DNA of 60,569 nt, the filler included, from Nemertoderma westbladi (taxonomy: Eukaryota; Animalia; Xenacoelomorpha), in assembly GCA_032718475.1 (NCBI GenBank). It is 2 parts of 2 records of this genome, joined end to end, with 100 filler letters (N's around TTAATTAATTAA, not from the genome) between each part and the next. Parts side by side here need not be neighbours in the genome. Positions count along the whole stretch, not along the records: positions 1 to 29,572 come from JAUCBJ010001432.1; 1 more part is not named here. The stretch is one strand, 5' to 3'. The position numbers were made by a program, and so were the translations under genes. The notes under the pieces are model-generated. The model was not told the DNA's origin. It searched no databases and saw only the letters and a list, made by a program, of their open reading frames with translations. Below, in pieces: positions 1 to 48,734 of the stretch. Each line of letters starts with the position of its first letter. The stretch's first letter is position 1.

Positions 1-285
1 TACGGTGGTGATTTGCGGCCTTTTCCCTTTTACCTTAATTAAATAATTTTACTCTTTACCTTACAAATAATTTTACTCTTTCTTTACCTTTTTCAATAAT
101 TTTACTCTTTACCTTCCAGATAATTTTACTCTTTACCTTCCAAATAATTTTACTCTTTACCTTTTTCAATAATTTTACTCTTTACCTTTTTCAATAATTT
201 TACTCTTTACCTTTTTCAATAATTTTACTCTTTACCTTTTCCAATAATTTGACACTTTTCAACAAGCAGACTTGGCCTTAACTGT
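1..285 (+). repeat. Left TIR with internal ~24-25 bp tandem subrepeats (AATAATTTTACTCTTTACCTT...)
   Basis: Reverse complement of 5239-5640, including the inner anchor TTTTCAACAAGCAGACTTGGCCTTAACTGT. Confidence 0.95.
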
Positions 286-585
286 AATAAATTGAACCTT
301 TAGGGGTTAAGTACTGGTATTCATCTAGCCTATATTGTACTGTACCCTACCCGTTATTGAACGGAACTGAAACAGTGTTAAATAAATATTTGAATTAGGC
401 CTACTACATAGCTATCTATTACGAGCCGGTATAATGAAAATAGTGATAAAAAATCGCCACTTCAGAGGTAGGCCTAGGCTTAGGCCTAGACTGTAATTAT
501 AGGCCTGATGGTTAACCTACTGTAAATATAGGCCTTCTGGTTATGTAATTATAGGCCTGCTGTGTAGGCTGGACCTCGAGATAAA

Positions 586-2888
586 ATGGCCCATGGTGGT
601 AATAATTCAGGAAAAAGCAGAAAAAAATTACTTGAAAGCTTGCGTCATAACATAAACGATCAGCTTGAGGATATCGCTACAAGTTCTACCAGTACAGGGA
701 GTAGGCCTACTTCAGGTTTAGCAGCAGGTGCTGTTGTGAAGAAACGACGTCCTTATAGTGGGCGACTACGAAAGTTGTCAGAGTTTAATTTTGTAACATT
801 TGTCTTCAAAATACAACCGGTCCGAAATGAAATTAATTAGTAAGCCCCTCGGAGAGAGTACGGGTCTGCGAGTTCAGGTGTCAATGAATGCGCCAATTTC
901 TCGTGTTGTAAGAGAAGTTACAGATATTGTATTTAGTGGCGATGATTCGGTTAATTTGCATCTTAAAAGTTTGAGGCATCCAAGTAAGAAAACTAATTAC
1001 ACCTGGTCTCTAGAAAATCTCCTTGGAGAAAATTTATCAAGCTTTGTTAGCCTACGCGATTATTGCGTTCAACGTTGTGTACCATCTTGGAAGATTAAAC
1101 CAATCTTAGTTGGAAGGATTTACCCATCGGAATTGGAAGAAAATTATGAGGAAGCTGCTGTAGAAGATAACGCTATTGCCACTGTTTCCAGTACCGGTAG
1201 CGGTTCTATTGATTTATTGTGGGCTGAAAATATGAAAGAGAAATAGGTCACTCCGAATCTGAAGATGAGGAATCAGTGTCACACATTATTGAGGCAGCTA
1301 ATGATTTTGAATTGATGGATCAAGGTGTTTCGAGTGCTCGACGAAGTTCTCGCATTACCCAGAGGATCATTTGTGAAGTTTGCCATCATTCCCGTTTAGC
1401 AACGGATGTTGATTGTTTCAACTGTCAGGTAATTTCTGATGTATTTGAGTCAGAGCAAGTTGATTTGATGAAGACTACTCACTGTAATGATGATCTGTTA
1501 TTGTCATCGGCCAATGATATAGAAGATGTTGAGGTTGATAGAGCTGAGGTTGCTTCCCTTCGGGCTGCTTATTTTGAACAATTACCCTTGACTTCGACTA
1601 GTTCGACCACCAATATGAGTACCCTCCTTACTAGCCCTAGTGCGTTATGCAATGACTCACCCCAATTAAGGTCTCAGAATAGCATTGGTGAAGTTGATGT
1701 GTTTCTTGTTCATGAGACAGGTCAAATTGTTCCTTGCACCGAAACTAAAGATGTCATAGCTATTGCAAAGTCTTGCCACTCAATTGGAGATGCACTTGAA
1801 GTTTTAAAATCGCCATTTAGCAGCAAGCAATTAACTCGCTTTGAAATTCCCCGTTCCCAGCTTGTTGACTGTCTCTATGAAATTATTGAAGAAGATGGAA
1901 TTCAGAGTCCTTTTGTCAATGCGAAATTTATAGGAGAAGACGCTGTTGACACCGGCGGACCCATGAGGGAAATGTTTTCACTCTTTTTTCTTCAAGATCG
2001 CGGTGAGCTATTTCGTGGTGCGTATCCGAATATGACATTTCGCCACAACCTGACCGAAAGCAAGAAATTTGAAATCTATGGAAATATGACTGCTCTATCT
2101 TTAATTAATGGACTTCCTGGTCCTCATTGCTTAGCTAAATCAGTTGCATCTGCAACTGTTGGTGTTCAATTCAAAGCCTCGCTCGAAGAAATACCAGCTT
2201 GTGATGAAAAGGTTAAGATTATAGAAATATTTAATTCTGATGATACTGATTCGTTCAACAAAGCAATTACTAATTGCTTCGAACGTTTTGATATGGGATT
2301 TGTTAAAGCCAACGTTACTCATGACCAAAAGGATTTAGTAATTGAAACTCTAGCTAAGCATCTTGTGGTTAGTTGTGTTTCTGAGGAAATTTCGCACTTT
2401 AAGAGAGGACTTCAGTTGTTCGGAGTTTTGGACACTTTCAAGAATTTAAATTTCTAACTGAAAGAAAAGTTTCTGCAGACGATGTCAAATCTGCATTTTT
2501 GCCAGTTTATACATCCCCTCATGGGTCAGCGGAACATTATATAGAATGTCAGCTCAAGTACAAGTTTGACAGATTTCTTGCTAAGATTGAGAAAAAAGAT
2601 GACTCGTCAATTTCCTCTTACTCATCATTGGAAGTTGACATACCGCGTAATATGAGGGTCAATCTAGGCGATGTGTTGCAATTTGGAAGCGGAAGTAGAT
2701 ACCCTGATTTTAAAGGCGAATTGTGTTTCGAACATAGCGATGGTTCACAGAGGAGATTACGTTCCAGTACATGTTCATACACAATAACCTTTCCCATGAA
2801 TGACCGATATGTTAAATCAACGTCAGAAGAGTTCTACCAGAGAGTTAGTGAGGACATTCTAAATACTATTGGATTTGGACTACCTTGA
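586..2888 (+). pseudogene. HECT-domain E3 ubiquitin ligase-like gene (G2E3-like), broken into four ORFs by three frame changes
   Basis: HECT N-lobe motif KFIGEDAVDTGGPMREMFSLF, G..TALSLINGLPGP, VLQFGSG and the C-lobe catalytic-type motif SSTCSYTITFP, ending in the HECT-like GFG. A CxxC-x10-CxxC motif sits at ~1372-1425. The shifted frame stays open across ~1230-1276 (REIGHSESEDEESV) and ~2450-2499 (FLTERKVSADDVKSAFL). Confidence 0.8.
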
Positions 2889-2906
2889 TTTACATTTACA
2901 TTAGAT

Positions 2907-3050
2907 AAAACTCATACTCATCATCTCTATAATGACTTCGAATTGTTACGAAAGTTATCTTTGATTTTAAATGTTAAAACTCATATTCATCGTCATGTTT
3001 ATAATGACTACGAATTGTTACGAAAGTTATGTTTGATTTTAATTGTTAAT
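2907..3050 (+). repeat. Imperfect ~70-bp tandem duplication in the 3' region of the HECT gene
   Basis: AAAACTCATA..TATAATGACT.CGAATTGTTACGAAAGTTAT.TTTGATTTTAA.TGTTAA occurs twice. Confidence 0.8.
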
Positions 3051-3121
3051 GTTGTTTATCTGTGATATGTTTCACAATGAAAACGTTTTGTATCTTATAG
3101 TTCCTCCTTTCATATCCATAA

Positions 3122-3668
3122 GGGGGGGGGGGGGGGGGTTTGACTAATTAACCAAAAGTGTTCGTTCCCTTATTTAGGAGGCTTCGTTTTACCGATTATT
3201 AATAATAAATTTAAACAATTTAAAGAAAAAAGACAGACAGACATGTAGGTTTTTTTAAAAGTGAACTGTAAACTGACGTCCGAAATGAAATCAGCAACCA
3301 GGATACCCCCCATAACTAAACTTCTATCTAGTTGGAATGCTTTTTTTATATTTTGACAGACAGATAGACGGACAAACAGACAGACCGACAATCAGACATA
3401 ACAGACTTCACTAAAAATTAAAACTGACTTCGGAAATGAAATCAGCGATCAAAAAAACCACAACAAAGAAGTTTTAGCTAGGTGGTATGATGTCCTTATA
3501 TTTTTTATATTTTTTACAGACAGACAGACAGACCTAGATAAATAATAGTTTTTGTTAAAAGTGAAAACTGACGTTTGGATGAAATCAGCGACCAGGAACA
3601 CCCTCATAACCCAACCCAACTCAACCCTCCCACCCCCCCCCCCCTGGGGGGGGGGGGGGGGGGGGGGG
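3122..3668. repeat. Intergenic block bounded by G/C homopolymers, with three diverged internal repeat units
   Basis: Poly-G at ~3122-3138 and poly-C then poly-G at ~3633-3668. AAACTGAC.T..G.AATGAAATCAGC occurs at ~3270, ~3420 and ~3565, with CAGA microsatellite stretches. Confidence 0.55.
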
Positions 3669-3902
3669 TAACATTTGATAATGAAAGCCTAGTTTTCAAT
3701 GTGTTGACCTGTTGAGCCTTTAAGAAAACCGTATATTGTACCCCCACCAAATCGATGAGTACATACAGTAAAGTGTTGTCAGATAACTCAAACTGTTTTT
3801 TTTTACAATTAATAAAAACTAAAAAATTAAAATAGTTATTATTCATTGCTTAAATTCAATATAAACAAAACTTGTATTGCAAAATTATACATGATACTAT
3901 TG

Positions 3903-5057
3903 TTAGTAGTCTTGTTCTAATCGATCAATAAGGTACACCAATGTATCAGCACAATCTGAGAGTGATTCACACATTTCAGGACGTTTAGTATCCGGTGAAT
4001 CATTCAAGTAGTCAGTACCCAACTCACTGATGCTCGGGAGGCAGTGTGGCTTCTTCTTGGAGAAGTACTTCATAAGATCAAGCTGATCAATGTGTTCCGG
4101 GTGTAGGAAATTCGGCTTATCCAAGAATAAGATATCTGGTTTACCAGCTTTCACTAACAAGCCAGATTTCCGTAAATGATGAGAATTCCACATTTCTCTT
4201 ATTGAATTCAGCAACCGTTGCAATAGATCCATATACACATACCGGATCAGTTCTATATGGATCCGATTAGAAGTAGTGATGACACTATAACCATCCAACT
4301 GAGCGAAGTGTTCAATCCAATGTTGTAAGCCAAGTTTTGGAAATTGGCTCCACCACGCCTCAATCCTCTGATTTCGAGAACTTTTACCGTACATATAGGT
4401 TGTGTTATGTTCTGCCCGCGTGTCATCATCAAAAGCTCGCAAATACCGTTGAATAACTTCTATATTAACATTTTCCGTTCCACAGTCGGAACGAATCAAA
4501 TGAGGAAGACCTCCAAAATTTTTCACAGCATCAATAAAATAATGTCCGATTACGAATGGATCATTGTTGGTAGAGCTGCACTGCAGCCACAGTAGTTTGC
4601 GGCTATAACCATCAATGCATCCGTGAAGGGCGAGTCCATAGTTTTTCAACTTATCCCACCCGTCCACATGGTGAATATAGTTTGGTCCTAATGCGTAATA
4701 ACTGCGACGTACTACTTTGTTCCCAATGCGATCGGCAACAAGTTGCGGATTTAACGTTTTTTGTATGAGTGCTACTAATTCTTCACGTGCAAATAAACCA
4801 TACTTTCGAAGTAGAATCCTCTTCATTTGGCGGTAACCACACGACGGCTCTCGAGAAATGGCGTTTATGATCAGGTTAACATTGTCAACATCACACCTCT
4901 TCTTCAAATTTATGTCAAACAATAGGCGACGGACAGTTCGCGATGAAATCCGAATTAAATGTCTCTCTTTGAGCAATCTACTGATTTCTAAGTGAGTATA
5001 CCCTAAAGAATAGTAATCCGTTACTGTCTCGTTTAAATGTAGCATACTCATGGTCAT
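3903..5057 (-). CDS. DDE integrase/transposase (IS3EU-like, rve-type core), intact 384 aa
   Basis: N-terminal HTH-like segment (ISSRTVRRLL), GYRQM, GPNYIHHVDGWDKL (D1), HGCIDGYSRKLLWL, LIRSDCGTEN (D2), YGKSSRNQRIEAWW (E), WNSHHLR. Confidence 0.92.
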   Translation of the reverse strand: MTMSMLHLNETVTDYYSLGYTHLEISRLLKERHLIRISSRTVRRLLFDINLKKRCDVDNVNLIINAISREPSCGYRQMKRILLRKYGLFAREELVALIQKTLNPQLVADRIGNKVVRRSYYALGPNYIHHVDGWDKLKNYGLALHGCIDGYSRKLLWLQCSSTNNDPFVIGHYFIDAVKNFGGLPHLIRSDCGTENVNIEVIQRYLRAFDDDTRAEHNTTYMYGKSSRNQRIEAWWSQFPKLGLQHWIEHFAQLDGYSVITTSNRIHIELIRYVYMDLLQRLLNSIREMWNSHHLRKSGLLVKAGKPDILFLDKPNFLHPEHIDQLDLMKYFSKKKPHCLPSISELGTDYLNDSPDTKRPEMCESLSDCADTLVYLIDRLEQDY

Positions 5058-5238
5058 ACAATATGGCTCACAATGCTATACACAGTTCAGTTCAATCTGT
5101 TCACAGTAAAGTTGACACCGTTTCAGTTCCGAAAGACTTCAAAGGTCAATAACGGGTATGGTAACAATATATGTAGGCTAGGTGAATTCCGCTACCGGTA
5201 CTTAGCGGGTTCGATCCGATTCGTACGTTCGATTCGCA

Positions 5239-5640
5239 ACAGTTAAGGCCAAGTCTGCTTGTTGAAAAGAGTAAAATTATTGAAAAAGGTAAAGAGTAAA
5301 ATTATTAAAAAAGGTAAAGAGTAAAATTATTAAAAAAGGTAAAGAGTAAAATTATTGAAAAAGGTAAAGAGTAAAATTATTTGGAAGGTAAAGAGTAAAA
5401 TTATCTGGAAGGTAAAGAGTAAAATTATTTGGAAGGTAAAGAGTAAAATTATTGAAAAAGGTAAAGAGTAAAATTATTTGTAAGGTAAAGAGTAAAATTA
5501 TCTGGAAGGTAAAGAGTAAAATTATTTGGAAGGTAAAGAGTAAAATTATTGAAAAAGGTAAAGAGTAAAATTATTTGTAAGGTAAAGAGTAAAATTATTG
5601 AATTAAGGTAAAAGGGAAAAGGCCGCAAATCACCACCGTA
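5239..5640 (-). repeat. Right TIR, with more subrepeat copies than the left TIR
   Basis: ACAGTTAAGGCCAAGTCTGCTTGTTGAAAA followed by an (AAGGTAAAGAGTAAAATTATT..)n array and the terminal CACCACCGTA. Confidence 0.95.
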
Positions 5641-6419
5641 TCATACGCCCACAACTATCATTTATAATCATTTCCAATTAATTTCTCCCTCTAGGGGCAT
5701 CATCAGGGACCAACCACCAAAGCAATAAAATACTGAAAAATTAGGCCTACCTACATTATTTTACTTTCTTATTTCTTTCTTTCTTATTTTTATCTTTCTT
5801 ATTTTACTTTTAGAAATAGGTGTAAGGTACATCAATCTATATTAAATATATTATTATCTTAAATATACTGATATCCCAACTTTAAATTATAATTTTATAT
5901 AAACAAGAACATAACTTAACATTAAACATGATACCATTCAGCCATTGCAGTGATTACACTTTACTTTACTTTTACATTTATTAATAGTCCTTTATCAGTT
6001 TAGTAGGTACAGAGGTAAGCCCCTGAGAACAACTTGCTATATCGGGAAAGGTACGCCTTTCCCGATTGGATATGCATCACCTTTCCCGATGGGGGAATTG
6101 GACCTAACTGCCTGTCTTCTAGTTTCTAGTAGACCTTGGTTTTTATATAGGCCTAGTACCGGTAGGGCCAAGCCAGCAAGCTGCCAAGTACTGAAGTATG
6201 TACCGTAGCCGATTTCACCTTCTTTTTTTACTAAAAATGTATGGTGCTTTGGCACTTTAATGTCAAATTTTCAATATTCGGTACCGAATATACCAAAGTT
6301 GTTTTGTTTCGGTTCCTGTTCGGCAATATTTTAACTTTGTTCGATCCATAGCCTGATAGCCTACTACCATACAGACTGACAGAGTACTGCAGTATTTTAA
6401 CTGTTAACAGCAATAAAAT

Positions 6420-22082: not shown

Positions 22083-23032
22083 GATCAACGATTTACGTGA
22101 GAACAAAAATTACTGAAGCAGATTGATAAAAGACTACATATAATTTCGTTTGTTAATTACCCAGAGATAAAGTTGTTTAGATAAAGTGCCATAATCAATT
22201 AATTCGGACACCATTATGGTCCACCACTATGTCATATAGGCAAATAAATGCCTAAAACATTATTTATTATTTATTTATTTGGCCTATTAATTATTCAACT
22301 TTAATTAGAGTAGCCAGCCTACGAATAATATCAACAATAACTAGACAGTAAAACACTGAGTACGAGTACTTTAGCTTGACATTATTTCCTCAATTTTCCA
22401 TAGCCCTTTTTGTGCCCTAAATAATCTCGATTTCTATTATGTCTTTTTAGTTCTCTCGTAATATTTTTTTCACTAAATGACACACAAAAAGCTGCAATTA
22501 TCTATTTATATACCAAAATATTAACGCCGTAAAGCGGGGGCTCCAACCATCGCGGATGCGTCAAGATTATAAGATTGGTAGCATAGTGTAGGATCGAAAA
22601 CAAGAACAACCACAACTCGGACTCGGACCTATTTTTGGGACGCGTCCAAATTCTAGAAAGCTGTGAATTCTATGAGGAGAGCCCCAACCCAAGCGAATTA
22701 CTACACCCAGAGTGACTAATATTATTATTATTGTTATTAGTGGATATTATAATAAATGCAGTCTTTAACTTATAACCGGCTCAAAGTATCATTACAGGTA
22801 ATATAGCATTGCCAGTAAACAAACATATTATGTTGTAGGTGGTTTATATTTTATTCATTAGCGTTTGTGACGCGTCCGCTTGTGGCATCTGCGCTGGTTG
22901 GGGCTCCACCTTTAGCATCAACAGAGGCAGCTATATAGACAAACTTGTTGGTCTGTTCGTCTGGAGCTTTGAAACCAACCATTGTGAATTTATCCAAGAT
23001 TCGGAAATTTGACAGGGTTATATTGCCCTCAG

Positions 23033-25884
23033 AATCTCCCCACAGACCACTGCCTTCCATCTGGGTTCAATCTCCCCACCGCACCGGCCTCCGCATTCCC
23101 TCTGGGTTCAATCTCCCCACAGGCCATTGCCTTCCATCTGGGTTCAATCTCCCCACCGGGACCTCCGCCTTCCATCTGAGTTCAATCTCCCCTCAGGCCT
23201 CTGCCTTCCACCTGGGTTCAATCTCCCCACCGGGGCCTCCGCTTTCCTTCTGGGTTCAATCTCCCCACCGGCCTCCGTCTTCCTCTGGGTTCAATCTCCC
23301 CACAGGCCACTGCCTTCCATCTGGGTTCAATCTCCCCACCGGGGCCTCCGCCTTCCATCTGAGTTCAATCTCCCCACAGGCCTCTGCCTTCCATCTGGGT
23401 TCAATCTCCACACCGGGGCCTCCGCTTTCCTTCTGGGTTCAATCTCCCCACCGGCCTCCGTCTTCCTCTGGGTTCAATCTCCCCATAGGCCACTGCCTTC
23501 CACCTGGGTTCAATCTCCCCACCGGGGCCTCCGCTTTCCTTCTGGGTTCAATCTCCCCACCGGCCTCCGTCTTCCTCTGGGTTCAATCTCCCCACAGGCC
23601 ACTGCCTTCCACCTGGGTTCAATCTCCCCAACGGGGCCTCCGCTTTCCTTCTGGGTTCAATCTCCCCACCGGCCTCCGTCTTCCTCTGGGTTCAATCTCC
23701 CCACAGGCCACTGCCTTCCACCTGGGTTCAATCTCCCCACCGGGGCCTCCGCTTTCCTTCTGGGTTCAATCTCCCCACCGGGGCCTCCGCCTTCCATCTG
23801 AGTTCAATCTCCCCACAGGCCTCTGCCTTCCACCTGGGTTCAATCTCCCCACCGGGGCCTCCGCTTTCCTTCTGGGTTCAATCTCCCCACCGGCCTCTAA
23901 TCTTCCTCTGGGTTCAATTTCCCCACAGGCCACTGCCTTCCATCTGGGTTCAATCTCCCCACCGGGGCCTCCGCCTTCCATCTGAGTTCAATCTCCCCAC
24001 AGTTCTCTGCCTTCCATCTGGGTTCAATCTCCCCACCGGGGCCTCCGCCTTCCATCTGGGTTCAATCTCCCCACCGGGTCCTCCGCCTTCCATCTGGGTT
24101 CAATCTCCCCACCCGGGCCTCTGCCTTCCATCTGAGTTCAATCTCCCCACAGGCCTCTGCCTTCCATCTGGGTTCAATCTCCCCACCGGGGCCTCCGCTT
24201 TCCATCTGGGTTCAATCTCCCCACCGGGGCCTCCGCTTTCCTTCTGGGTTCAATATCCCCACCGGCCTCCGTCTTCCTCTGGGTTCAATCTCCCCACAGG
24301 CCACTGCCTTCCATCTGGGTTCAATCTCCCCACCGGGGCCTCCGCCTTCCATCTGAGTTCAATCTCCCCACAGGCCTCTGCCTTCCATCTGGGTTCAATC
24401 TCCCCAGCGGGGCCTCCGCCTTCTATCTGGGTTCAATCTCCCCACAGGCCTCTGCCTTCCCTCTGGGTTCAATCTCCTCATTGGCCTCCGTCTTACCTCT
24501 GGGTTCAATCTCCCCACAGGCCACTACCTGTCATCTGGGTTAAATCTCCCCACAGGCCTCCGCTTTCCCTCTGGGTTCAATCTCCTCATTGGCCTCCGTC
24601 TTACCTCTGGGTTCAATCTCCCAACAGGCCTCTGCCTTCCCTCTGGGTTCAATCTCCTCATTGGCCTCCGGCTTACCTCTGGGTTCAATCTCCCCACAGG
24701 CCACTGCCTTCCATTTGGGTTCAATCTCCCCACCGGGGCCTCCGCCTTCCATCTGAGTTCAATCTCCCCACAGGCCTCTGCCTTCCATCTGGGTTCAATC
24801 TCCCCAGCGGGGCCTCCGCCTTCCATCTGGGTTCAATCTCCCCACAGGCCTCTGCCTTCCCTCTGGGTTCAATCTCCTCATTGGCCTCCGTCTTACCTCT
24901 GGGTTCAATCTCCCCACAGGCCACTGCCTGTCATCTGGGTTAAATCTCCCCACAGGCCTCCGCTTTCCCTCTGGGTTCAATCTCCTCATTGGCCTCCGTC
25001 TTACCTCTGGGTTCAATCTCCCCACAGGCCACTGCCTGTCATCTGGGTTAAATCTCCCCACAGGCCTCCGCTTTCCCTCTGGGTTCAATATCCTCATTGG
25101 CCTCCGTCTTACCTCTGGGTTCAATCTCCCCACCGGCCTCTTCCTTCCCTCTGGGTTCAATCTCCTCATTGGCCTCCGTCTTACCTCTGGGTTCAATCTC
25201 CCCACAGGCCACTGCCTTCCATCTGGGTTCAATCTCCCCACCGGGGCCTCCGCCTTCCATCTGAGTTCAATCTCCCCACAGGCCTCTGCCTTCCATCTGG
25301 GTTCAATCTCCCCAGCGGGGCCTCCGCCTTCCATCTGGGTTCAATCTCCCCACAGGCCTCTGCCTTCCCTCTGGGTTCAATCTCCTCATTGGCCTCCGTC
25401 TTACCTCTGGGTTCAATCTCCCCACAGGCCACTGCCTGTCATCTGGGTTAAATCTCCCCACCGGCCAACGCTTTCCCTCTGGGTTCAATCTCCCCACCGG
25501 CCTCCGTCTTCCTCTGGGTTCAATCTCCCCACAGGCCACTGCCTGTCATCTGGGTTAAATCTCCCCACAGGCCTCCGCTTTCCCTCTGGGTTCAATCTCC
25601 TCATTGGCCTCCGTGTTACCTCTGGGTTCAATCTCCCCACAGGCCACTGCCTGTCATCTGGGTTAAATCTCCCCAACGGCCACCGCTTTCCCTCTGGGTT
25701 CAATCTCCCCACCGGCCTCCGTCTTCCTCTGGGTTCAATCTCCCCACAGGCCACTGCCTGTCATCTGGGTTAAATCTCCCCACAGGCCTCCTCTTTCCCT
25801 CTGGGTTCAATCTCCTCATTGGCCTCCGTCTTACCTCTGGGTTCAATCTCCCCACAAGCCACTGCTTTCCCTCTGGGTTCAATC
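23033..25884. repeat. C-rich 36/38-bp minisatellite with higher-order structure (core CTGGGTTCAATCTCCCCAC)
   Basis: Core spacing is 36 or 38 bp (e.g. 23285, 23321, 23359), and variant blocks recur. Confidence 0.97.
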
Positions 25885-26175
25885 CAGAGGGAAATCAACT
25901 ACTAGACCATGCGGCTGCTTGGTCGAATGGTAACCGAATATTACTGCAAATTTAAATGGAAGGTGCTTCACTAAATCTCAATATTGAATACTCTCACTAT
26001 CAGGCCATTTTCTTTAATAACTTTTATGGTATTCACTTACAGTTTAGTAAGAAACTTATCCAACATCTTTGATATTACGGCCCAATGTTGCTTTAAGGCC
26101 AGATAGTGGCGCATATTGACCGCAAGTGAAAATTGTGATGTTCAGCGCAAATTAACCGGAAGGGAAAGAAAGTAT

Positions 26176-26226: not shown

Positions 26227-26519
26227 TTAATGTTTTAAATTAAATTAAATTATTGTTTGGTCATTTTAGCCATTGAGGCAACATGACGTACAATTCTACC
26301 ACTAGTTTTACCCATATTATGGTTATATCTAAGTTATATGTTTGTTTACTCACAAACACAGTGAGTAGACGATTTGTGCAAAATATGTTGTTGTTTCATA
26401 GCAACAGTGGGCCTGATTAGGTAGTATTACAGTAGTAATGTACTGTAATAAATAATATATAACAAATCAAAAAATAATAATAATGATCTGATTATTCAAT
26501 TTCATCAATAAAACCCAAC

Positions 26520-27482
26520 ATGCGTTATAATTATTACAACGAAAGGGCTTCAGTTCCTCTCACCAATGAAATTCAGATGGATTTGATATTTATCCAAGTT
26601 TCATTTCCGCTACTGTGTGTGTTGATAATCATTGGGAATTCAATGACTTTATTAGTTTTAGCAACAAATAAGAAAATGCGAAATCCACTCAACTTCTTTA
26701 TGGCAAACTTAAGTGTTTCTGATTTGTTAGTGGGTATACTTATTGTTATACCCGAAATGTTTGTTTTGGAAGATAGATTTTTTGAATGGAACTACGGATA
26801 CTTCTGGTGCAGATTCTTTCAGTTTATCTTGTTTGTGAGCAACAATGCCTCAATTTTATTCATGCTTTGCATTTGCATAGAGCGCTATATCGTTATTGTC
26901 AAACCGTTTTTAGCCATTCACATTATTTTATGGCCTCAAGTGATTGTTGTTGCCATAACAGTTTGGCTGTTTTCGGTTTCAGTTAATTTGGTTCACTTGG
27001 CTTTCTGGCATTCGGAAGAAGTTTTTTTACCAGCCGCTGGCAGAAACGTAACTATTTGCTGGTTGGCACCTGAAGCAAGAAGATCTCTCGTTATTACAGG
27101 AACTTTGTGCGCATTTATCTTTCCTGCTATTGTTATGTCGATGTTCTATGTAATAATTGGCCTCACTATGTTGAGATCAAGAACTTCGCGAAAAACTAAG
27201 ACGAATCGAGTTGTAGAAAGGAAAGGAAAACGAATAGTTTCTATGATGGTTGTAGTTATGGTGAGTTTCTATGTCTGTTGGCTCCCAAATCACATCTACA
27301 ATTTTATCGATGAGTTCATTGGTTTCAATGACTCTTATGACAATGTTAGAAAATGGTATTTCGTCATCTCAGTTTTCTTTGTATTTTTATCGTGTTGTAT
27401 TAATCCTATTATATACATTTGCTTCTTGCCCGGGTTCAGAGATGGTATAAAAGATCTTGTGATGTGTCGTTGCCACAAGTAA
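26520..27482 (+). CDS. Class A (rhodopsin-like) GPCR, probably a neuropeptide receptor, single exon
   Basis: GN in TM1, NLSVSDLL in TM2, W..G...C in ECL1, ERY in TM3, W in TM4, FIFP in TM5, FYVCWLP in TM6, NPIIY in TM7, helix 8 FRDGIK. Confidence 0.95.
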   Translation: MRYNYYNERASVPLTNEIQMDLIFIQVSFPLLCVLIIIGNSMTLLVLATNKKMRNPLNFFMANLSVSDLLVGILIVIPEMFVLEDRFFEWNYGYFWCRFFQFILFVSNNASILFMLCICIERYIVIVKPFLAIHIILWPQVIVVAITVWLFSVSVNLVHLAFWHSEEVFLPAAGRNVTICWLAPEARRSLVITGTLCAFIFPAIVMSMFYVIIGLTMLRSRTSRKTKTNRVVERKGKRIVSMMVVVMVSFYVCWLPNHIYNFIDEFIGFNDSYDNVRKWYFVISVFFVFLSCCINPIIYICFLPGFRDGIKDLVMCRCHK

Positions 27483-29672: not shown

Positions 29673-30549
29673 ACTATCTATTGATCAATTTGATTATTTT
29701 AAAAAATTTGGTGCTGGCACAACAATTTTCACCCAACGGCGAAAAATACAAGTTTGAAAACTCTTATATAATTTACGTATGACGTATTCCATTGAATTCG
29801 GAACCCTCACAAACCCTGCTAACCGAACAAACCATCAACTCTAAACTAACAAGTTCAACAATGCTAAATCGGCAGGTTTATATAAAAATATCAAATTTAT
29901 TATGGATAATCCAGATCGATAGTAAAACAAATGATTCTGCTACACTAGATACATTGGGTGTCAGGGGTTCAGCATCTTACAAAAGTATCATCATTTTTAA
30001 ATTTGCAAGATGTAATTATGGGGAGCCGTTCGGGTCAAAATCAAATTACAAAAAACCATATCTTTAGAATTCATATAGTATATTTTATTGTTCGCCGTTT
30101 GGGCCAAAAAGTTGTTCGTTAATTATTTATCGCAATAATTTTTATTGTCCGTATAAATCACTCATGATGTCCTTTTTTTGACTTTTTATGTACTCCAGAA
30201 ATTTACCGTTAGGTTCCATGCTACCGGTTTCTCTACTGCTGTTCTCTCAGGCTATCAGTACCGGTATTAGTATATAGAGCACTATTTTGCAGTATTGCAT
30301 GTACAGATGTAGGTATAAAGCAGGTATCTTAGTTTTATTTTATTTTAGTTGTATTAGTTTTATTGTTTTGGTTCATCAATTGGTAATTGTTTGAGTAAAT
30401 GAGTGTTTTGCTACGTCATGTGGTAATCGATTATCGACAACAACCACAAACTAATAAATTTTGAGTCTTTTACCACAGGCGCATATGGAAATCTATAAGT
30501 CTATGAGTCTATAAATCATGGAATTTTGAATGTTTTAGCATAGGCATGT

Positions 30550-30712
30550 TGAAATCAACTGTCTGACAGTCCAGAAATCAGCAGTCTGACAGTTTGAAGA
30601 AATACATACATAAAAAGGACAACAAAAGTCATTAAAGGGACAACAAAAGTCATTATGCACAATTCGTAAAAAAAGGAGGACAAAAAAGTCAAATAAAAGG
30701 ACATAAAAAATC
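30550..30712. repeat. Short subrepeat cluster (GTCTGACAGT x2; GGACAACAAAAGTC-like x3), possibly a TIR remnant of the adjacent integrase relic
   Basis: Direct repeats about 420 bp upstream of the 31130 integrase pseudogene. Confidence 0.4.
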
Positions 30713-31129
30713 ACTGCCATTATTTATTTCACCAAATGGGCCAAAATTCAGAAGAGGGAAATTTAAATAACTATGGTACTGTAGTACAGTACTGGTCAGC
30801 TGGTAGGCCTTCCCTTATTCATGTTATTCAGTTGGGACAATTACAGACAAAAAATGCCCATTACACATTACAAGCTGACAGCTTACAAGTTAACTGCAGC
30901 ACTACTGCAGTTAACCTGTAAACCTCACCTCTCTGCACTGACTAAATGTTAAGTACTGAACTAGGCCTAATCAATTGGAATGCACCTTTCTGCCTTTCAG
31001 ATTTTGACTGATTCTGTGATTGTCTTCAGTTATTATTACTATTATTATTTTTATTTATATTTATAATTATGTTTAGTTAGATACTGGAGATAGGTTGGTC
31101 CTGCACGGTAGGCCTAGACATTTAGCTGC

Positions 31130-32030: not shown

Positions 32031-32420
32031 AAGAGACTACGGCGGTTGAAGCGCCAGTAACTGAGGTCATAGTTTGCAATATAATATAATAATAATATCT
32101 CAGAAGTGGCTACTGACCGGACCCATAGACCGGACCTCTAAATACCGTATTACAGCTTTATATTTGATTTATATTTTACTTGTGTAGTGTATTATTGACT
32201 GGACCCTTATTACCACAATTAAGTAACCTGCATAATCTTGTAACATGTGTTAACTTTCGTTTATTGTTTTGGTTCCCCCAACACGCCTCTGCAACCTGCT
32301 CCTTTACTAAACTTCTCCTTTATATGGCAATGGGTCCGGTCAGTGTCCTTTGCCATATCTTAGTTATTAATTTGTGTTCTAGATAATAATACATAATACG
32401 CAAATAATAAATAACAATAA

Positions 32421-34128: not shown

Positions 34129-35469
34129 CTACTGGTTACTAGGGTAAATACCACATCTAAAAGCGAAAAGAACAATCAAGGAGAAAAGAAAAGGCAACCC
34201 CAACAGACTTAAAAGCGAACAAGTTGTTTCCATTCCAAAGTAATCATTGAGAAATCCTCCAAAAATGAGTCCTATAATATTTCCAATTGACAGAGAAATT
34301 CTATACATTTGTTGGAGAAGAGATCTGGTGTCAACATTATCAGGATAGCCACAAACATTTATTGCCAGTTGTGTTTGTATTTCCAGTGCCGGGGTTTCGA
34401 ATATACCAATCCCCAAACCTAGTAGAGCAGATCCGGTGATAGAGATGGCGAGATAATGAGGTAAACCCAGTAGTTCTGTAGGGCCTATTAGTTGCATTGA
34501 TACTGCTAGTACCATTACACCGAATACTGTAGGCAAGATTAAGACATGCTTCAATTTCTTTATCAGTAATGATATTATTAGACTCATTAAAGCTAGAACA
34601 CTTGCAAATATCATATATATCAGACCAATAAAATATTGGTTCACATTATAAGTGTGGTGAAGGTAGGTAGCATAGTTCGCAACTACAAAAGAAGAGAGCA
34701 TTATGAAATATGAATTCAAAATAAATATAAGTATAATGATTGGATTCTTCAGAACTTTAAGATAAGTTGGTCTGACTTCTTTCGATTCACATCTGTCATG
34801 AATATAAGCTGGTGACTCTATCCAGCAGTAAAGGATGATAATGAGAAACATCAAACCCGATATTATAAATGGGAATTCAAAACCCAAAGCAGCAAAAATC
34901 GATGACCCAAAAACTGGTGCAACCATATATCCCAAGTTGTCAATAATAACTGATAGACTGGCTAATAAAGTTCTTTTTGTCGGCCACAATTCCATTAATA
35001 GACTGAATGAATATATGAAACTAATGTTGAGACCAACAGATTCAATGATGCGCAGTGAAAAACATGCCAATATGTATAATCCATAGTTAGTATTAGGGAT
35101 ATACTCAACAAACCCAAATGCTAACTGGAAAACTGCTCCAATGATACCGAATAGACCCAAAGAGATATGAGTTCCCCAATTGTTGATAGAATGAGGGGAA
35201 GTAATGAAGATTACAAGTCTAACAGCTGTAAACATTGCGAAGAATGTACCAATCATGGTTTTAGACCAACTTCTCTCTTCCACAACAATTGGAAAAAACG
35301 TTTCCAATAAATTCTGACACCAACCTGGTATTGTTTGATAAACGATCAGCATTGTCAGTAACACATAAAGTCTCCATTCCTTTCTATGTCCATTTTTAGT
35401 GGAATCTGTTTCATTTCTTGCAGTTGAAATAATCGGAGCTCTTTCATCTGACATTTTATAGATGTACAA
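34129..35469 (-). CDS. MFS transporter, SLC18B1-like, single exon
   Basis: About 12 hydrophobic segments; LLETFFP, LRIIESVG, LGYMVAPVFGSSIFAALGFEFPF, IGPTELL, IGNIIGLIFGGFLNDYFG. Confidence 0.88.
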   Translation of the reverse strand: MYIYKMSDERAPIISTARNETDSTKNGHRKEWRLYVLLTMLIVYQTIPGWCQNLLETFFPIVVEERSWSKTMIGTFFAMFTAVRLVIFITSPHSINNWGTHISLGLFGIIGAVFQLAFGFVEYIPNTNYGLYILACFSLRIIESVGLNISFIYSFSLLMELWPTKRTLLASLSVIIDNLGYMVAPVFGSSIFAALGFEFPFIISGLMFLIIILYCWIESPAYIHDRCESKEVRPTYLKVLKNPIIILIFILNSYFIMLSSFVVANYATYLHHTYNVNQYFIGLIYMIFASVLALMSLIISLLIKKLKHVLILPTVFGVMVLAVSMQLIGPTELLGLPHYLAISITGSALLGLGIGIFETPALEIQTQLAINVCGYPDNVDTRSLLQQMYRISLSIGNIIGLIFGGFLNDYFGMETTCSLLSLLGLPFLFSLIVLFAFRCGIYPSNQ

Positions 35470-36052
35470 TTTGGTTTAGGTTATTCTGGATAATTCATAT
35501 ATGACAATAATGATTAGCAAAAGTAGAGCCAATTAAATATCATTTCCAAATTGAGCATTATTTGATTTTATGGCATGTCAGAACATAGTTAGGGTTATTT
35601 ACTAATATTTATTTACTTATTTACTAATAATAGATAGGGTTATCTAAAAAGATTGCAAAATTGCAGTTTTCAGTGATGAATCGAGCAACTTTGATTGGAA
35701 AAATAAATGATGATATTGTCAGTTGATGATGTGGATCTGTATTAGAAAAAATTTAGTCAGCCATATACATAAACAACTTCAGATAAATTCGATTTCCATG
35801 GATAATGTAAAATTTTCTTTAACCCCAGCGATATCATATTTATTACTGACAACACTGCAATGTATACATATTCACAAATTAAAGTGGTGAACAAGGTGGG
35901 CACAGATTTTATTAAGCATCATCATTATAGTATGTCCGACTTTAAATAAGAAATTTTAAATAATTTTTAATGTACTATATTTGAGGTGGTCATTTAGCTA
36001 TTCTGAGTATATGCACATAAGTTACCTGGGAAATGGTGAAAAACAACGAGAC

Positions 36053-43057: not shown

Positions 43058-43227
43058 GGATTTTTTTTTTTCCTGGTTGCTGCTGCTGGATATAGACTTG
43101 TTACTTGTACCGTCAGACCGTTGGGCGTAGATAATCGATTGTTGGTTATCGGTAAACTGGCTGACTTTGGACTTGTACCGGTAGGTACCGGTAATATCAA
43201 GCATTCAGACAGTCAGCGAGTCAGGGT

Positions 43228-44862
43228 ATGACAGACGTTTTTGGATTCGAGAACGATAGCGATAGTACCGGTAGTAGATGCGGAGGGTCTGACCAAACGC
43301 AAATAGCCGTCGGTCCGAGAGAAGAATCAAGTTGGACGGACATAAACTTAAATAGTCCGGCGGTTGTCGTTCCTGGTTCCGGTTGCGACCGTCCTAGATA
43401 TTCTGAAACGCAGTCTCACGGTAGGAATCGGTTTCCTGCAGTACCGGTACCAGGAGAAGGGGACGATTACATACATCCTAATAGAGAGCAGCAAGGTACC
43501 GATACCTGTATACAGCTTGAACGCGACGCACCGATAATGGCGGATATCAGGAAGGAACCGGAAATATTCGACGGGCGTGGAGATGTTGATTCCTGGGTTA
43601 GTGCATTACAGCGATTGGGACGTCTTCGAAGATGGAATTACGTGATGATGGGAAGGGTTGCTTCCGTTTATGTGTCAGGTACCGCGGCTCGCGTAATAGA
43701 AGAATTACCTACTGAACAACAAGTCGATTTTGATAGCGTAGTAGCCACTCTGCGAGCTAGATTTAGGCCTTTACCCCCCGAGGTTATATGTAGTAAGCTG
43801 TTAGATTGTAGGCTTGGAATAAATGAAACTATAGAGGAGTATGTAGATAAACTCCAGAAATGGGGACAGCAAGCCTGGGTAGATATGAATGGTGCACAAT
43901 GAGATCGGTTATTACTTACAGTTTTTTACAGAGGCATACCCTCTGATTTGGCTTTTAGGATTAGAAACAGCCATCCGCAATCGTTTGACGAGGCTGTACG
44001 TATGGCGCGTAATGAAGAAATTTATTTAGCGGAGGCGAACCATTTAAATTACGGTGATCAAGCTGGACGTATTGATCGAAATACCGATATTGATTCTAAT
44101 AGGCCAAAGCATACCTTTTTGCAGGAAAGTGGTGTACATGGATATGTAAACAATACGGCGAGTTTTAATAGAAATTCTACTGTACCGAGTAGACCGGTTA
44201 CCGTTGATCCAAAAATAAATAAATTAGAAAGTGAGATACAAGAATTACGGAAACAAATTTCCGGTATGCAGTGCCAGCCAGCTCCTGTACGTCCGTTTAC
44301 TCCTGTACGTCCGTTTACTGCATGGAATAAGAGTAGAACAGATTCTGGTCCAAACCATTCTGAAAGGAGTAGTGATACATTAGCTTACAGTAGTGGTAGA
44401 CCTGTAGATAGCCCTTATTTGACTGAGCCAAGTAGGTCAATTATTCAAAGTGAACATTTTCAGGGAAGTAATAATATGACACCCCGTAGGAATGTTACAT
44501 GTTTTAACTGCAATGAATTTGGCCATTACAGTACCCAATGTCCCCAGCCGTTTGCTTCCCGTAATGTTCAGCCACGGAGAGATATTGTTTGTTTTAATTG
44601 TAACGAGTCTGGACATTACAGTACCCATTGCCCAAGATCTCAAACATCCCGATTTAATAGATCGAGTGACGATGTGAGACGTACTTATCCATACAGACCG
44701 AGACCTTCCCCACTTAGTACTGGTAGCAATATGTGCCACACCCTACTCCACCGCCCAGTAGGTTTAGTACGGATGCTGGTACACCGGCTTCGAGTTTTGA
44801 AAATAATCACATACGGTATACAACGCATACGAATCGCGATTGGTACATACCTATACATATAG
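43228..44862 (+). pseudogene. Gypsy gag with an in-frame TGA at 43900-43902 and two CCHC zinc knuckles
   Basis: Capsid-like PEIFDG and ETIEEYVDKL; same frame on both sides of the stop; CFNCNEFGHYSTQC and CFNCNESGHYSTHC. Confidence 0.88.
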
Positions 44863-47800
44863 GACGTACAAAGATGGTTGGTTTGGTAGATAGCGGTTCG
44901 GATTTTACTATAATGGATATACGTAAATTACCAAAGGATTGTGAACTGGGAGCCAGTAGTATACCATCTATTAAGGGTGTAGGAGGGTTAATGCCAGTAT
45001 TAGGTGAAGTGCATCTACCGATTGTTATTACGTCAGACTTTAAAGTAGACATATTAGTGTATATTGGCGACTTACAGAAAATTGATGGTTCTGAAATTAT
45101 TTTTGGTAAAGATTTTATCTACCAAGCCTGTACCTCGTTTGATTTAGTAAAGCAATGTATGATTTTACGGAATAACGAGTGTGTTTATTTTTGTAGTCCA
45201 CCGACTCAGGTTATATCTAACTCAACCACAGAACACTATACTCGCCGTATAATTATGTCAGAAAAGAGGGTTACTATACCACCAGATTCACAGGCATATA
45301 TTACAGGTTGTTTGAAGGGAAAGGGAAGTAATTGTAGCTTCCCAGCAGGACCAGTTTATATTGAACCTCTGTATCAGTCGAATACTCAAACCCTACTAGC
45401 ACGTTGTATTATAGAGCCAATTGATAAAGAACGTGTTACATTACAAGTTTTAAACCCAAACAATTCACCAATTACTGTTTTTAAGAACCAGAAGGTAGCA
45501 TCATACTGTGACGTCACTAATTATACCTTGCGTACTTTAGAAAGTAGGGCTATCAGTACAGATAGTGTAGTTAATGATGTCAATGGTAAACAGATATTTT
45601 TACGTGAAGAATTAAAATTAGACCATTTAGACTCTGACAAACAAGCTGATGTATTGGACATTGTTGGACAGAATCCCCATTCATTTTCTTACAATGATTA
45701 TGACATAGGACGGACTACACTGTTACAACATTCTATACCTTTGAAACCTGATGCTAAACCGATACATGTAAAGCCTTATCCAATACCCGTAGCCATACGT
45801 CCAGAACTGAGAGAACGGTTAAGTAATTTACAACGTGTAGGAGTTATACAGCCGAGTACCAGTGAATGGTCTTCTCCTCTTATTATTGTTAAGGCACCTA
45901 ATAAGCCATGGCGCTTAGCTATAGACTATAGGGGACTTAATTCAGTAGCGGTTCCTCAATTTTGGCCATTACCTAATATTGATTACATGTTAGCAGAAGT
46001 TGGTGCTGCCAGACCAGAATATTTCAGTGCTTTGGATTTTAAATCCATGTTTTGGCAAGTAGAGATTAATCCGGAGGATTATGCGAAGACCGCCTTTCAT
46101 ACTCAGTGGGGAAACTTTGAGTTTCGTAGAATGCCGTTTGGGCTTCAGTCATCACCCAGTACGTGTCAGAGATTAATGCAACTAGGATTAGAAGGGATAG
46201 AATGTGCTTTAGTGTACATGGATGACCTGATATTGTATTCTAGAACGTGGGAACAGCACATAGAACTCATAGATATAGTACTACGGCGTATAAGTGAGTT
46301 AGGTCTCAAATGGAAACCATCTAAATGTTGTTTTGGAGCGAGTTCAATACACTTCCTAGGACACATTATTGATCGGGATGGTATACATACTGACCCTAAG
46401 AAAATAAGTACAATGGTCGATTTCCCCAGACCTACTTGTGTGAAGGACTTACAGAGTTTTCTGGGCCTGTGTGGATACTACAGGAAGTTTGTGAGAGATT
46501 ATGGCAAATTAGTACAACCATTGTATGGCCTAACTAAAGTAGGAGTGCCGTTTTACTGGAATGCAGATTGTGAACAAGCTTTTCTAGAACTCAAGAATCG
46601 ACTCGTTTCATCGCCAATTTTATCCCACCCTGACTTTGAACGAGAGTTTACCTTAGAAACTGATGCCAGTGGATCTGGACTTGGGGCGATACTTTGCCAA
46701 GACGATAAGGTTATAGCTTATGCTTCGCGTTCCCTGACTTGTGCTGAAGCTAAGTGGTCGATTACGGAATTAGAGGGATTAGCAGTAGTTTGGGCCGTAG
46801 CTAAGTTTCGTTTTTATTTATTGGGTCGGCATTTTAAAGTGATTTCAGATCATAACCCCCTGCGATGCTTGTCTTGGGTTGGTGTCAATCGCCATATTAC
46901 GGGTCGTCTCCAAAGGTGGGCACTAAAACTGTCAGAATACGATTATACTTTTATTTATAAGCCCGGAAAGTTTAACAGGGCTGATTGCTTATCCCGAATA
47001 AAAGTAGAACATCCTCTAGATACGACTAACACTGTAAACAATCACAGTAACGAACTCGATGTTGAACCATTTTGTTTAATTAATGTTCCTGTAATAAACC
47101 CTGTAGACTCTACAGACGTGACTGGAGACACAGACAATTTGATGAATAACAAATCTAATGTAGTGAGTGTAGATACCGATGAACTACAAGGTCTTGTAGA
47201 CTTATTTAGTTGCACTGGAACGGATTCGAAGGTTTGTAACCATGACTACCAGGATAAACAGAGTTCAGTAGCAAATGACGATGATGGATGTTCATATTAC
47301 CGTGCTCCAGATACCTCAATACATGTAGATAGTTTCGCAGACGTTCAGTCTTCCTTACCTGTGTTACCTAGCAATGTGGAGTTTTGTAGTTTGTCCAGAC
47401 TACGTACACTGCAGTTGGAAGATTCAAATATTAAGGTGATGGTAGAATATTTACAAACGGGAAATAAACCAGAATTTAATCGTAAGCTCTCTGAGTGTAA
47501 GAATATGGTAAAGTTACATACACAATATGTATTAGTAGATGGTATTCTATGTCACGTCTCGGATTGTAAGACAAATAAGACAATACAAGTAGTAGTACCT
47601 AAGTTACTACGTAGACAGGTACTACTTCAGTTCCATGACCTTAGGTCACACTTAGGAATTAATAAAGCGTTGAATGACATTAAAGTAAAATTTTATTGGG
47701 TAAATCTCCGGGATGATGTAGCGCGGTACATACATAGTTGTGATCCTTGTCAACGACGTAAAGGTTCTACTAGTATTCAACCATTAACTAGTTTACCAGC

Positions 47801-48734
47801 CCCTACCCGAGTTATGGAAAGATTATCTATTGATATCGTGAAAGGGTTTCCCACTAGTCCAACTGGTAATAAACTTGTTTTCACTATTACAGAACATTTA
47901 ACCCAATATGTTGAACTATTACCTGTCCCTGACGAACAGGCTGAAACTTTAGCCCGGGAATTGGTAAATAAAATATTTTGTGTATACGGTGCAGCTGAGA
48001 TTATTTTATCGGACAGAGGTCCAAGTTTTACTTCGTCACTTTTCTCGGAACTGGAAAAAATATTTGGCATTGTTCGTGTGTTAACTTCAGCGTACCACCC
48101 ACAATGCAATGGTCTTACTGAAAGGGTCAACCAATCCATGTGTAATATGTTAACACTGACAGTTCGTAACCATGACAACTGGGAAGAAATGCTTCCCCTA
48201 GTACAATTTAATTATAACACTAGCGTACATTCTAGTATAGGGATGGCACCATTTACGTTGATGTTTGGTAGGGAGGCTCATCTACCAATAGATACTCGTA
48301 TTGAGCGGCCTTATAGTTTGTTGGCTGACACAGCGACATACCCTGACGAATTACGTAAGAACTTACAAAATGCCCACAAGTTAGTTAGAGAACAACTAAG
48401 TAAAGCACAGAATAAACAAAAACGCCTCCACGATCGTAAAGTGAAACAAAATTTGCAATCATTTGTGACAGGCGATAAAGTATTGTATTTTGATCGACGC
48501 GTTAAGCGCAAGAATAATAAGTTGCGGTTCCGTTTTACCGGACCCTATGTAGTGCTCCGTAAGCGTTCGCAGTTTTCATATGAATTACGTCCTGTACGGA
48601 AACGAGTTACACCACGAACTCCAGTGTTGGTAGTGAACGCGAAAGATTTAAAGTTATATCAAGTGCGTTCATCCGCTTGTGAAAGTAATAACCCTTCTAT
48701 GTCCAATGGACAAAGTGATGTCGACACACCTTAG
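44733..48734 (+). CDS. pol: Gypsy pol polyprotein (protease, RT, RNase H, integrase), open frame, -1 relative to gag
   Basis: LVDSGS; WSSP, IDYRGLN, MPFGL, YMDD; TDASG, ELEGLA, SDHNPL; H..H/C..C; D-D-E (SIDI, SDRG, NGLTER); GPY motif. Confidence 0.97.
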   Translation: MPHPTPPPSRFSTDAGTPASSFENNHIRYTTHTNRDWYIPIHIGRTKMVGLVDSGSDFTIMDIRKLPKDCELGASSIPSIKGVGGLMPVLGEVHLPIVITSDFKVDILVYIGDLQKIDGSEIIFGKDFIYQACTSFDLVKQCMILRNNECVYFCSPPTQVISNSTTEHYTRRIIMSEKRVTIPPDSQAYITGCLKGKGSNCSFPAGPVYIEPLYQSNTQTLLARCIIEPIDKERVTLQVLNPNNSPITVFKNQKVASYCDVTNYTLRTLESRAISTDSVVNDVNGKQIFLREELKLDHLDSDKQADVLDIVGQNPHSFSYNDYDIGRTTLLQHSIPLKPDAKPIHVKPYPIPVAIRPELRERLSNLQRVGVIQPSTSEWSSPLIIVKAPNKPWRLAIDYRGLNSVAVPQFWPLPNIDYMLAEVGAARPEYFSALDFKSMFWQVEINPEDYAKTAFHTQWGNFEFRRMPFGLQSSPSTCQRLMQLGLEGIECALVYMDDLILYSRTWEQHIELIDIVLRRISELGLKWKPSKCCFGASSIHFLGHIIDRDGIHTDPKKISTMVDFPRPTCVKDLQSFLGLCGYYRKFVRDYGKLVQPLYGLTKVGVPFYWNADCEQAFLELKNRLVSSPILSHPDFEREFTLETDASGSGLGAILCQDDKVIAYASRSLTCAEAKWSITELEGLAVVWAVAKFRFYLLGRHFKVISDHNPLRCLSWVGVNRHITGRLQRWALKLSEYDYTFIYKPGKFNRADCLSRIKVEHPLDTTNTVNNHSNELDVEPFCLINVPVINPVDSTDVTGDTDNLMNNKSNVVSVDTDELQGLVDLFSCTGTDSKVCNHDYQDKQSSVANDDDGCSYYRAPDTSIHVDSFADVQSSLPVLPSNVEFCSLSRLRTLQLEDSNIKVMVEYLQTGNKPEFNRKLSECKNMVKLHTQYVLVDGILCHVSDCKTNKTIQVVVPKLLRRQVLLQFHDLRSHLGINKALNDIKVKFYWVNLRDDVARYIHSCDPCQRRKGSTSIQPLTSLPAPTRVMERLSIDIVKGFPTSPTGNKLVFTITEHLTQYVELLPVPDEQAETLARELVNKIFCVYGAAEIILSDRGPSFTSSLFSELEKIFGIVRVLTSAYHPQCNGLTERVNQSMCNMLTLTVRNHDNWEEMLPLVQFNYNTSVHSSIGMAPFTLMFGREAHLPIDTRIERPYSLLADTATYPDELRKNLQNAHKLVREQLSKAQNKQKRLHDRKVKQNLQSFVTGDKVLYFDRRVKRKNNKLRFRFTGPYVVLRKRSQFSYELRPVRKRVTPRTPVLVVNAKDLKLYQVRSSACESNNPSMSNGQSDVDTP

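Follow-up and report, generated by a model that had tools for sequence, protein, structure and literature searches.

A HECT-type ubiquitin ligase gene carried by an IS3EU/GingerRoot-type transposon of Nemertoderma westbladi and by relatives of this element

Transposons of the IS3EU/GingerRoot superfamily are defined by TA..TA termini of the form TAYGG..CCRTA, terminal inverted repeats (TIRs), a 6-bp target-site duplication (TSD) and an integrase-like DDE transposase that lacks an HHCC motif (PMC10045372, PMC12730594). The structure and function of the superfamily have been described as largely unexplored (PMC11934779), and it has been proposed that TET/JBP, which fungal IS3EU elements carry next to an alpha-kinase, helps these elements escape silencing by methylation (PMC12730594). 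We analyzed a 60,569-nt stretch of DNA from the xenacoelomorph Nemertoderma westbladi (assembly GCA_032718475.1), hereafter called the window, which joins two parts of two records with 100 filler letters between them; positions 1 to 29,572 come from JAUCBJ010001432.1. The element at its left end is real and belongs to this known superfamily, and its cargo is a gene predicted to encode a HECT-type E3 ubiquitin ligase.

Positions 1-5640 hold a complete cut-and-paste transposon of ~5.6 kb with ends TACGG..CCGTA. Its terminal 20-mer, TACGGTGGTGATTTGCGGCC, is present at 1-20 (plus strand) and inverted at 5621-5640 (minus strand), with no other site at three or fewer mismatches, and 0 of 100 shuffles contained such a pair. 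This bears out the long TIRs and the ends reported in a preliminary description of the window, and reading of the open reading frames (ORFs) confirmed its further statement that the TIRs enclose two convergent genes. Both arms consist mostly of 24-25-nt tandem units, with more units in the right arm, and exact copies of a 17-nt core number seven on the left and 13 on the right. The stretch begins at the first TIR base, and only the right-hand copy of the TSD is readable. For comparison we used contigs from the three of six listed sequencing runs in which the stretch is present (X1, X2 and X3). The features of the element are as follows.

1..5640, no strand: IS3EU/GingerRoot-type DNA transposon, complete copy (TACGG..CCGTA TIRs; depth ~4-10x that of the ALG11 flank)
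1..285, plus strand: left TIR, with 24-25-nt tandem subterminal units (repeat analysis)
586..2888, plus strand: gene of a HECT-type E3 ligase (772 codons in the read-through frame), with frameshifts near 827, 1230 and 2431 (ORFs, run contigs, relatives)
830..1159, plus strand: globular region near the N-terminus, preceded by a basic KKRR stretch, with a low-confidence fold model; the corresponding part of relatives is a ubiquitin-like domain
1372..1425, plus strand: C-x2-C-x10-C-x2-C motif read from the sequence, zinc-ribbon-like by pattern only, without a Pfam match
1780..2430, plus strand: HECT N-lobe (37-43% identity to seven relatives, E 1.8e-41 to 8.1e-25; PF00632 in five of the seven)
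2445..2885, plus strand: HECT C-lobe, 38% identical to P0122 across 158 aa; codon 2772-2774 encodes the Cys at the catalytic position, and there is a Phe at -4 from the C-terminus
3267..3610, no strand: host repeat of high copy number, made of three ~150-nt units and lying between the 3' ends of the two genes (repeat families D6/D8; depth in the thousands)
3903..5057, minus strand: intact rva_4 integrase-like DDE transposase, 384 aa, with D132, D191 and E233 (Pfam, relatives, alignment)
5239..5640, minus strand: right TIR (repeat analysis)
5641..5646, plus strand: TCATAC, the expected right copy of the 6-bp TSD (sequence; flank contigs of X2 and X3)

The termini and the transposase are those of the IS3EU/GingerRoot description, and the 6-bp TSD is shown in relatives and suggested for the window's own family. 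The transposase gene is an open minus-strand frame whose product matches rva_4 in Pfam (E 1e-33), and its catalytic D132, D191 and E233 are invariant in an alignment of 38 sequences, so the intact rve-type integrase of the preliminary description was correctly recognized. Of 2789 candidates, 131 proved to be relatives of this protein at E <= 0.001; those with a name belong to fish, cnidarians, molluscs, a tunicate and a sponge. A weak helix-turn-helix match was obtained at its N-terminus, and Pfam yielded no match to a zinc-binding domain, which fits the IS3EU criterion of no N-terminal HHCC and a first D located 100-300 residues in. The host repeat at about 3267-3610 seems to be common to copies of the family because an X2 contig joins this repeat to positions 3123-3267 of the element.

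Assignment of the second gene to the HECT ligases rests on its relatives because the window pieces miss the Pfam cut-off. The domain is divided over two ORFs, of which 1228-2457 matches Pfam HECT (PF00632) at E 0.045, with 13.8 bits versus a gathering score of 23.9, and 2403-2888, which contains the C-lobe, has no match. Both ORFs nonetheless match a HECT profile built without them (E 1e-35 and 1e-13), and the match of the C-lobe to P0122 runs through the Cys and the terminal GFG. When a 19-row profile that includes the window pieces was compared with the PDB, 74 sequences matched at E <= 0.001. The best of these, HUWE1 (E 2e-23), aligns over profile positions 15-350 of 353 with the Cys of its HTC in register, and E6AP is among the other full-length alignments. 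The motifs that the preliminary description had named (STCSYTITFP and a terminal GFG) are present in the sequence.

The extent of conservation bears on whether such a protein could be active. A narrow HECT profile identified 2385 representatives at E <= 0.001 among 1.84 billion. The catalytic Cys is present in 18 of the 18 rows that reach the C-lobe, from clades less than 25% identical, and its column is kept in at least 90% of the 71 rows of a second alignment. The terminal Phe is conserved in the group to which the window belongs; a Phe at -4 from the C-terminus of HECT domains has a role in ubiquitin transfer. Because the Cys is kept across such divergent HECT domains, intact copies of the family are likely to encode an active ligase.

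In the window copy, the ligase gene appears as four overlapping plus-strand ORFs between 568 and 2888 that are split by three frameshifts. Compared with the window, contigs from X1, X2 and X3 carry eight additional letters after 827 and lack two at 1230, and after 2431 those from X2 and X3 carry ten additional letters and X1 shows the window state. One X2 contig covers 256-2707 with all three indels plus five substitutions, and therefore connects the ligase gene with the inner boundary of the left TIR. With all three indel sizes applied, the window yields a single frame of 772 codons with no internal stop, seven of the seven other indel combinations stop early, and no stop arises from any of the six coding substitutions listed. 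Since only the three indels together restore the frame, we consider the gene to be free of introns and the window copy to be a recent pseudogene. Introns had been entertained as the cause of the four ORFs and were rejected, as the contig indels explain all three junctions. The two breaks private to the window, near 827 and 1230, could be assembly errors. Thus, the HECT gene of ~765 codons in the preliminary description does exist, with 772 codons once read through, and is broken here by three frameshifts. Because the ligase gene of the window is a pseudogene, the earlier notion of an element armed with a ubiquitin ligase applies to the family and not to this copy.

Related loci were collected by scanning metagenome contigs (26 of 64 parts) with the transposase alignment; the best 80 of 567 confirmed matches were fetched, plus 12 from prokaryote assemblies. 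Among the non-transposase ORFs of at least 150 aa at these relatives, eight of 81 pass the Pfam HECT cut-off, a result independent of our own profile, and two more match weakly; all ten are located downstream from the transposase on the opposite strand. An iterated profile, which was partly built from the counted loci so that those match by construction, revealed convergent HECT sequence at 21 of 35 loci with at least 2 kb downstream, at 18 of 25 with at least 3 kb, and at 25 of 56 with 1 kb. HECT sequence was found upstream of the transposase at one of 17 loci, and the best reversed-ORF control gave E 0.52. Some loci are near-duplicates, and when they were clustered at 70% transposase identity, 15 of 23 clusters were HECT-positive. 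In a quick tree of 35 rows, positive loci fall in most transposase clades and negative loci are mostly sisters of positive ones, except for a clade formed by L031, L079 and L082. L069 matches L071 at 98.7% identity as far as roughly the expected start of the ligase gene.

The survey for HECT plus integrase genes inside TAYGG TIRs that was proposed earlier gave two positive loci, L039 (5112 bp, TSD AAAAAG) and L066 (9394 bp, TSD GATTGT), in which both genes lie inside TACGG..CCGTA TIRs. Exact 6-bp TSDs are present at L016, L039 and L066, and long intact ligase ORFs of 710-714 aa at L064 and L070.

Purifying selection on the ligase is shown in the pair L070/L071, whose HECT sequences differ with dN 0.051 and dS 0.262, giving a dN/dS of 0.20 over 383 codons (0.13 for the transposase). 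This pair provides the ratio below one that the preliminary description had called for, and it is the one usable pair among ten at 45% or higher identity, the others being saturated (six), identical (one) or near saturation (two, at 0.15 and 0.22). The HECT proteins of L018 and L064 are 63% identical despite saturated synonymous sites. From the 21 of 35 loci, the complete TIRs and TSDs of L039 and L066, the Cys in all 18 rows and the dN/dS of 0.20, it appears very probable that the HECT gene is a standing accessory gene, as was originally supposed, and no one-off capture.

The transposase relatives L081-L092, three of which have HECT-like matches, come from contigs of metagenome-assembled genomes of prokaryotes, where they neighbor LINE-, MULE- and piggyBac-like genes; they are probably eukaryotic host contamination. 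A scan of viral contigs with the transposase pattern gave 435 pattern matches and no relatives. The window also contains a decayed IS3EU-like element at 30017-33428, with TATGG..CCATA TIRs (82% over 38 nt), a near-TSD (TGTAAT/TGCAAT), and a fragmented rva_4 transposase at 31118-32024 on the plus strand, in which no HECT match was found.

The trees of the two genes conflict in part. Pairwise identities of ligase and transposase correlate among 16 elements (Mantel rho 0.45, p 0.005). Between clades, HECT domains are 13-25% identical and transposases 30-48%. The HECT data reject the transposase sister pairs L005+L022 (p-AU 0.003) and L064+L066 (p-AU 3e-10), the transposase data reject the HECT clade L022+L038+L039 (p-AU 1e-4), and dS in L070/L071 is unequal, at 0.26 for HECT versus 1.13 for the transposase. 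Because the trees conflict and dS is unequal, ligase modules appear to have been exchanged between elements, and the data thus suggest module swapping. The window branch is long in both trees and its placement is unsure.

The N-terminal region of the ligase is variable. Region 830-1159 of the window has no Pfam match and no sequence link to the N-termini of 51 relatives, its single-sequence fold has low confidence (pLDDT 41), and the ESM Atlas returned nothing above 0.85, with low recognition. The N-terminal domain common to L070 and a group of coral proteins folds confidently (pLDDT 85) as a ubiquitin-like beta-grasp (structure search of the model: best Z 9.3, root-mean-square deviation 3.2, 87 aligned); the window region was misaligned with these relatives and was dropped before folding. 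Additional domains of relatives include UBX, CUE, RING, UIM, SAM or zinc-ribbon, many by weak matches. Pfam matched no RING or PHD in the four ligase ORFs of the window, where one Cys4 motif was seen by eye.

Contig depth over the ligase gene is 81-125 in X1, 281 in X2 and 90-101 in X3, with transposase depth close to these values, and depth on the ALG11 contig is 14, 27 and 21, respectively; the resulting excess of ~4-10x is a rough figure and no copy number. These depths suggest a small family of several copies that carry both genes jointly and differ very little. Deletion-type joints at 1181-2951 (X1 and X3) and 4166-5228 (X1) point to deletion derivatives. The ALG11 mannosyltransferase gene is a single ORF at 6417-7874 (plus strand), ~780 bp past the right end of the element. 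Positions 5641-5650 have zero contig depth in all three runs, and X2 and X3 contigs carry the right flank without the element and with the hexamer TCATAC once. This fits a recent and polymorphic insertion in the window, in a flank that is itself repetitive and with contigs that drop rare variants. Loose ends past the terminus read AAATAG in X2 (consensus of two contigs, 0.7 agreement) and CTATTT in X3; in this one sample, each is the reverse complement of the other across exactly six bases, which is what a 6-bp TSD of a different copy would give. X5 contigs cover the ALG11 gene and not the genes of the element, which carries no weight either way regarding expression. The family is young, and since the element is only 5.6 kb and intron-free, an intact natural copy would be easy to assay.

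From what is known of these protein families, the transposase would bind the TIR units, excise the element and reinsert it with a 6-bp duplication, and the ligase would accept ubiquitin from an E2 of the host at the Cys of its C-lobe and hand it to a substrate picked by the variable N-terminal region. We propose that the ligase may act in trans on nuclear proteins of the host, probably ones involved in silencing or chromatin, and thereby ease transposition. That the substrate is a host protein we hold tentatively, at a little under even chances. Such a role seems to us more probable than one directed at the transposase of the element itself, because the ligase appears to be an exchangeable module with varied N-termini and the same slot holds an alpha-kinase beside TET/JBP in fungal IS3EU elements. 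Other modifying enzymes indeed occupy this position, both in fungi (alpha-kinase plus TET/JBP, PMC12730594) and in L031, where a protein kinase ORF (2956-4352, minus strand; Pkinase E 3e-41) is convergent with the transposase and the clade gave no HECT matches; TIRs were not found on the 4.7-kb contig of L031. The varied ubiquitin-system domains or ubiquitin-like fold of the relatives also speak for a host-directed role.

It is possible, if rather unlikely, that the ligase instead targets its own transposase, either by ubiquitinating the post-insertion complex for removal through p97 and the proteasome followed by gap repair, or by capping transposase levels. The fixed convergent linkage of the two genes and their correlated divergence (Mantel rho 0.45) would suit this arrangement, as would UBX-like matches in the relatives L008 (E 1.5e-4) and P0384 (E 2.5e-5). 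UBX domains bind p97. There is also a precedent in HIV integrase, which is degraded by TRIM33 and CRL2-VHL, and for which degradation after integration has been proposed to aid transcription (PMC9603942). However, ligase modules appear to have been exchanged between transposase lineages, related elements lack HECT or have a kinase instead (L031; PMC12730594), and HECT domains have diverged between clades to 13-25% identity, versus 30-48% for transposases. A complex prediction of the transposase with three ligase pieces, made without alignments and without controls, scored 0.00 and speaks neither for nor against such an interaction.

It seems improbable that the protein is retained for a role that is non-catalytic or directed at itself, for instance as a scaffold, as a sink for E2 or ubiquitin, or as a helper of nuclear import (compare vertebrate G2E3). 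The HECT domain is very divergent, in the window to below the Pfam cut-off, the residues preceding the Cys vary (STC, NTC, RAC), and the HECT domain of G2E3 has been called non-functional (PMC3673628). Against this must be set the Cys itself, kept in every row reaching the C-lobe and almost throughout the larger alignment, and the terminal Phe kept in the window's group. Finally, a host gene captured once as a neutral passenger and now decaying, which the three frameshifts of the window copy, the deletion derivatives and the host gene fragments captured by GingerRoot elements (PMC6839031) might suggest, is largely refuted and very improbable given a sister contig with an open frame, a position and orientation that recur in 15 clusters (70% transposase identity), the dN/dS of 0.20 in L070/L071, and the long ORFs (710-714 aa) that are intact in L064 and L070.

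Several observations weigh against a standing, exchangeable ligase that acts on the host. Profile searches gave no HECT match at 14 of the 35 informative loci, which include L016, a complete and TSD-flanked element, and the clade of L031, L079 and L082, and to these we add the partial circularity of the profile counts and the single unsaturated pair noted above. The window copy is apparently recent and has three ligase frameshifts yet an intact transposase, X1 shares the break near 2431, and the derivative without 1181-2951 in X1 and X3 indicates that the ligase gene is often lost; taken together, these indicate a ligase that is not needed in cis. Regarding exchange, the transposase data do not reject the HECT clade L018+L064 (p-AU 0.17), the HECT sequence of L022 and the transposase of L066 are short pieces, and the Mantel correlation fits some co-descent of the two genes.

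Other features of the window were recognized by eye or from repeats and are listed here.

22939..25955: long GC-skewed tandem repeat, yielding repetitive open frames
26487..27482, minus strand: rhodopsin-type G-protein-coupled receptor ORF, by eye
34129..35475, minus strand: MFS-like transporter ORF, by eye
43195..48734, plus strand: Gypsy-like long terminal repeat retrotransposon, by eye, with Gag-like ORFs that a single stop interrupts and a Pol-like ORF of 1335 aa
50523..52140, plus strand: BEL/Pao-like integrase fragments, by eye

A transposon whose own HECT ligase is maintained by selection would offer a compact setting for asking how selfish DNA turns the ubiquitin system against host control or on its own machinery. 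A description of the HECT-IS3EU pairing was not found in the literature searched, although Repbase entries, Kojima 2020 and most supplements were outside the search and may state it. No HECT gene in IS3EU elements is described in the available parts of PMC10045372, PMC12730594, PMC11934779, PMC6431247, PMC4455052, PMC3520738, PMC8965078, PMC9603942, PMC3673628, PMC2837046 or PMC6839031.

Among the systems that have been described, the IS3EU/GingerRoot elements of PMC10045372 and PMC6839031 share with the window element its TA..TA termini, DDE transposase without HHCC, and long TIRs, and with its relatives L016, L039 and L066 the 6-bp TSD. The cargo of GingerRoot elements consists of host gene fragments (PMC6839031), whereas the window family has a conserved second gene, and neither HECT nor ubiquitin occurs in the available parts of these two papers. 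The TET-positive IS3EU elements of fungi likewise have TAYGG..CCRTA ends, a 6-bp TSD and a second enzyme gene opposite the transposase, but their cargo is an alpha-kinase plus TET/JBP (PMC12730594), in contrast to a HECT ligase and no TET in the window. Kapitonov's DNA transposons with conserved proteins of host origin, among them Intons derived from IS3EU, are described in a meeting report (PMC3520738) and embody the broader notion that such proteins are retained to regulate transposition; the part of the report that was available names no such protein, and its sole "hect" string is in "trophectoderm."

The remaining comparison is with G2E3 and the GL-Metazoa class IV HECT proteins, whose HECT domains are highly divergent like that of the window (PMC3673628, PMC2837046); in the available parts of these two HECT surveys, the string "transpos" does not occur. 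The closest named relatives of the ligase are coral proteins automatically labeled as G2/M phase-specific E3 (PFX23080.1 and three near-identical Paramuricea entries), and one Stylophora model among the coral relatives is fused to reverse transcriptase-like and rve pieces. That many "G2E3-like" gene models of animals are transposon genes, as the preliminary description anticipated, is only suggested by these sequences; if so, multicopy models of this kind in invertebrates may inflate the counts of host HECT ligases. We would go further only as speculation, which we consider unlikely to hold in full: animal IS3EU elements might have an exchangeable slot for HECT ligases that are active and break down silencing or chromatin factors of the host in the manner of viral accessory ligases, the G2E3-like and GL-Metazoa HECT proteins might largely be transposon genes, and the HECT domain of vertebrate G2E3 might be a domesticated relic. 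Vertebrate G2E3 carries three N-terminal RING/PHD-like fingers, whereas the window protein has no RING/PHD triplet, keeps the Cys, and is encoded inside the TIRs of a transposon.

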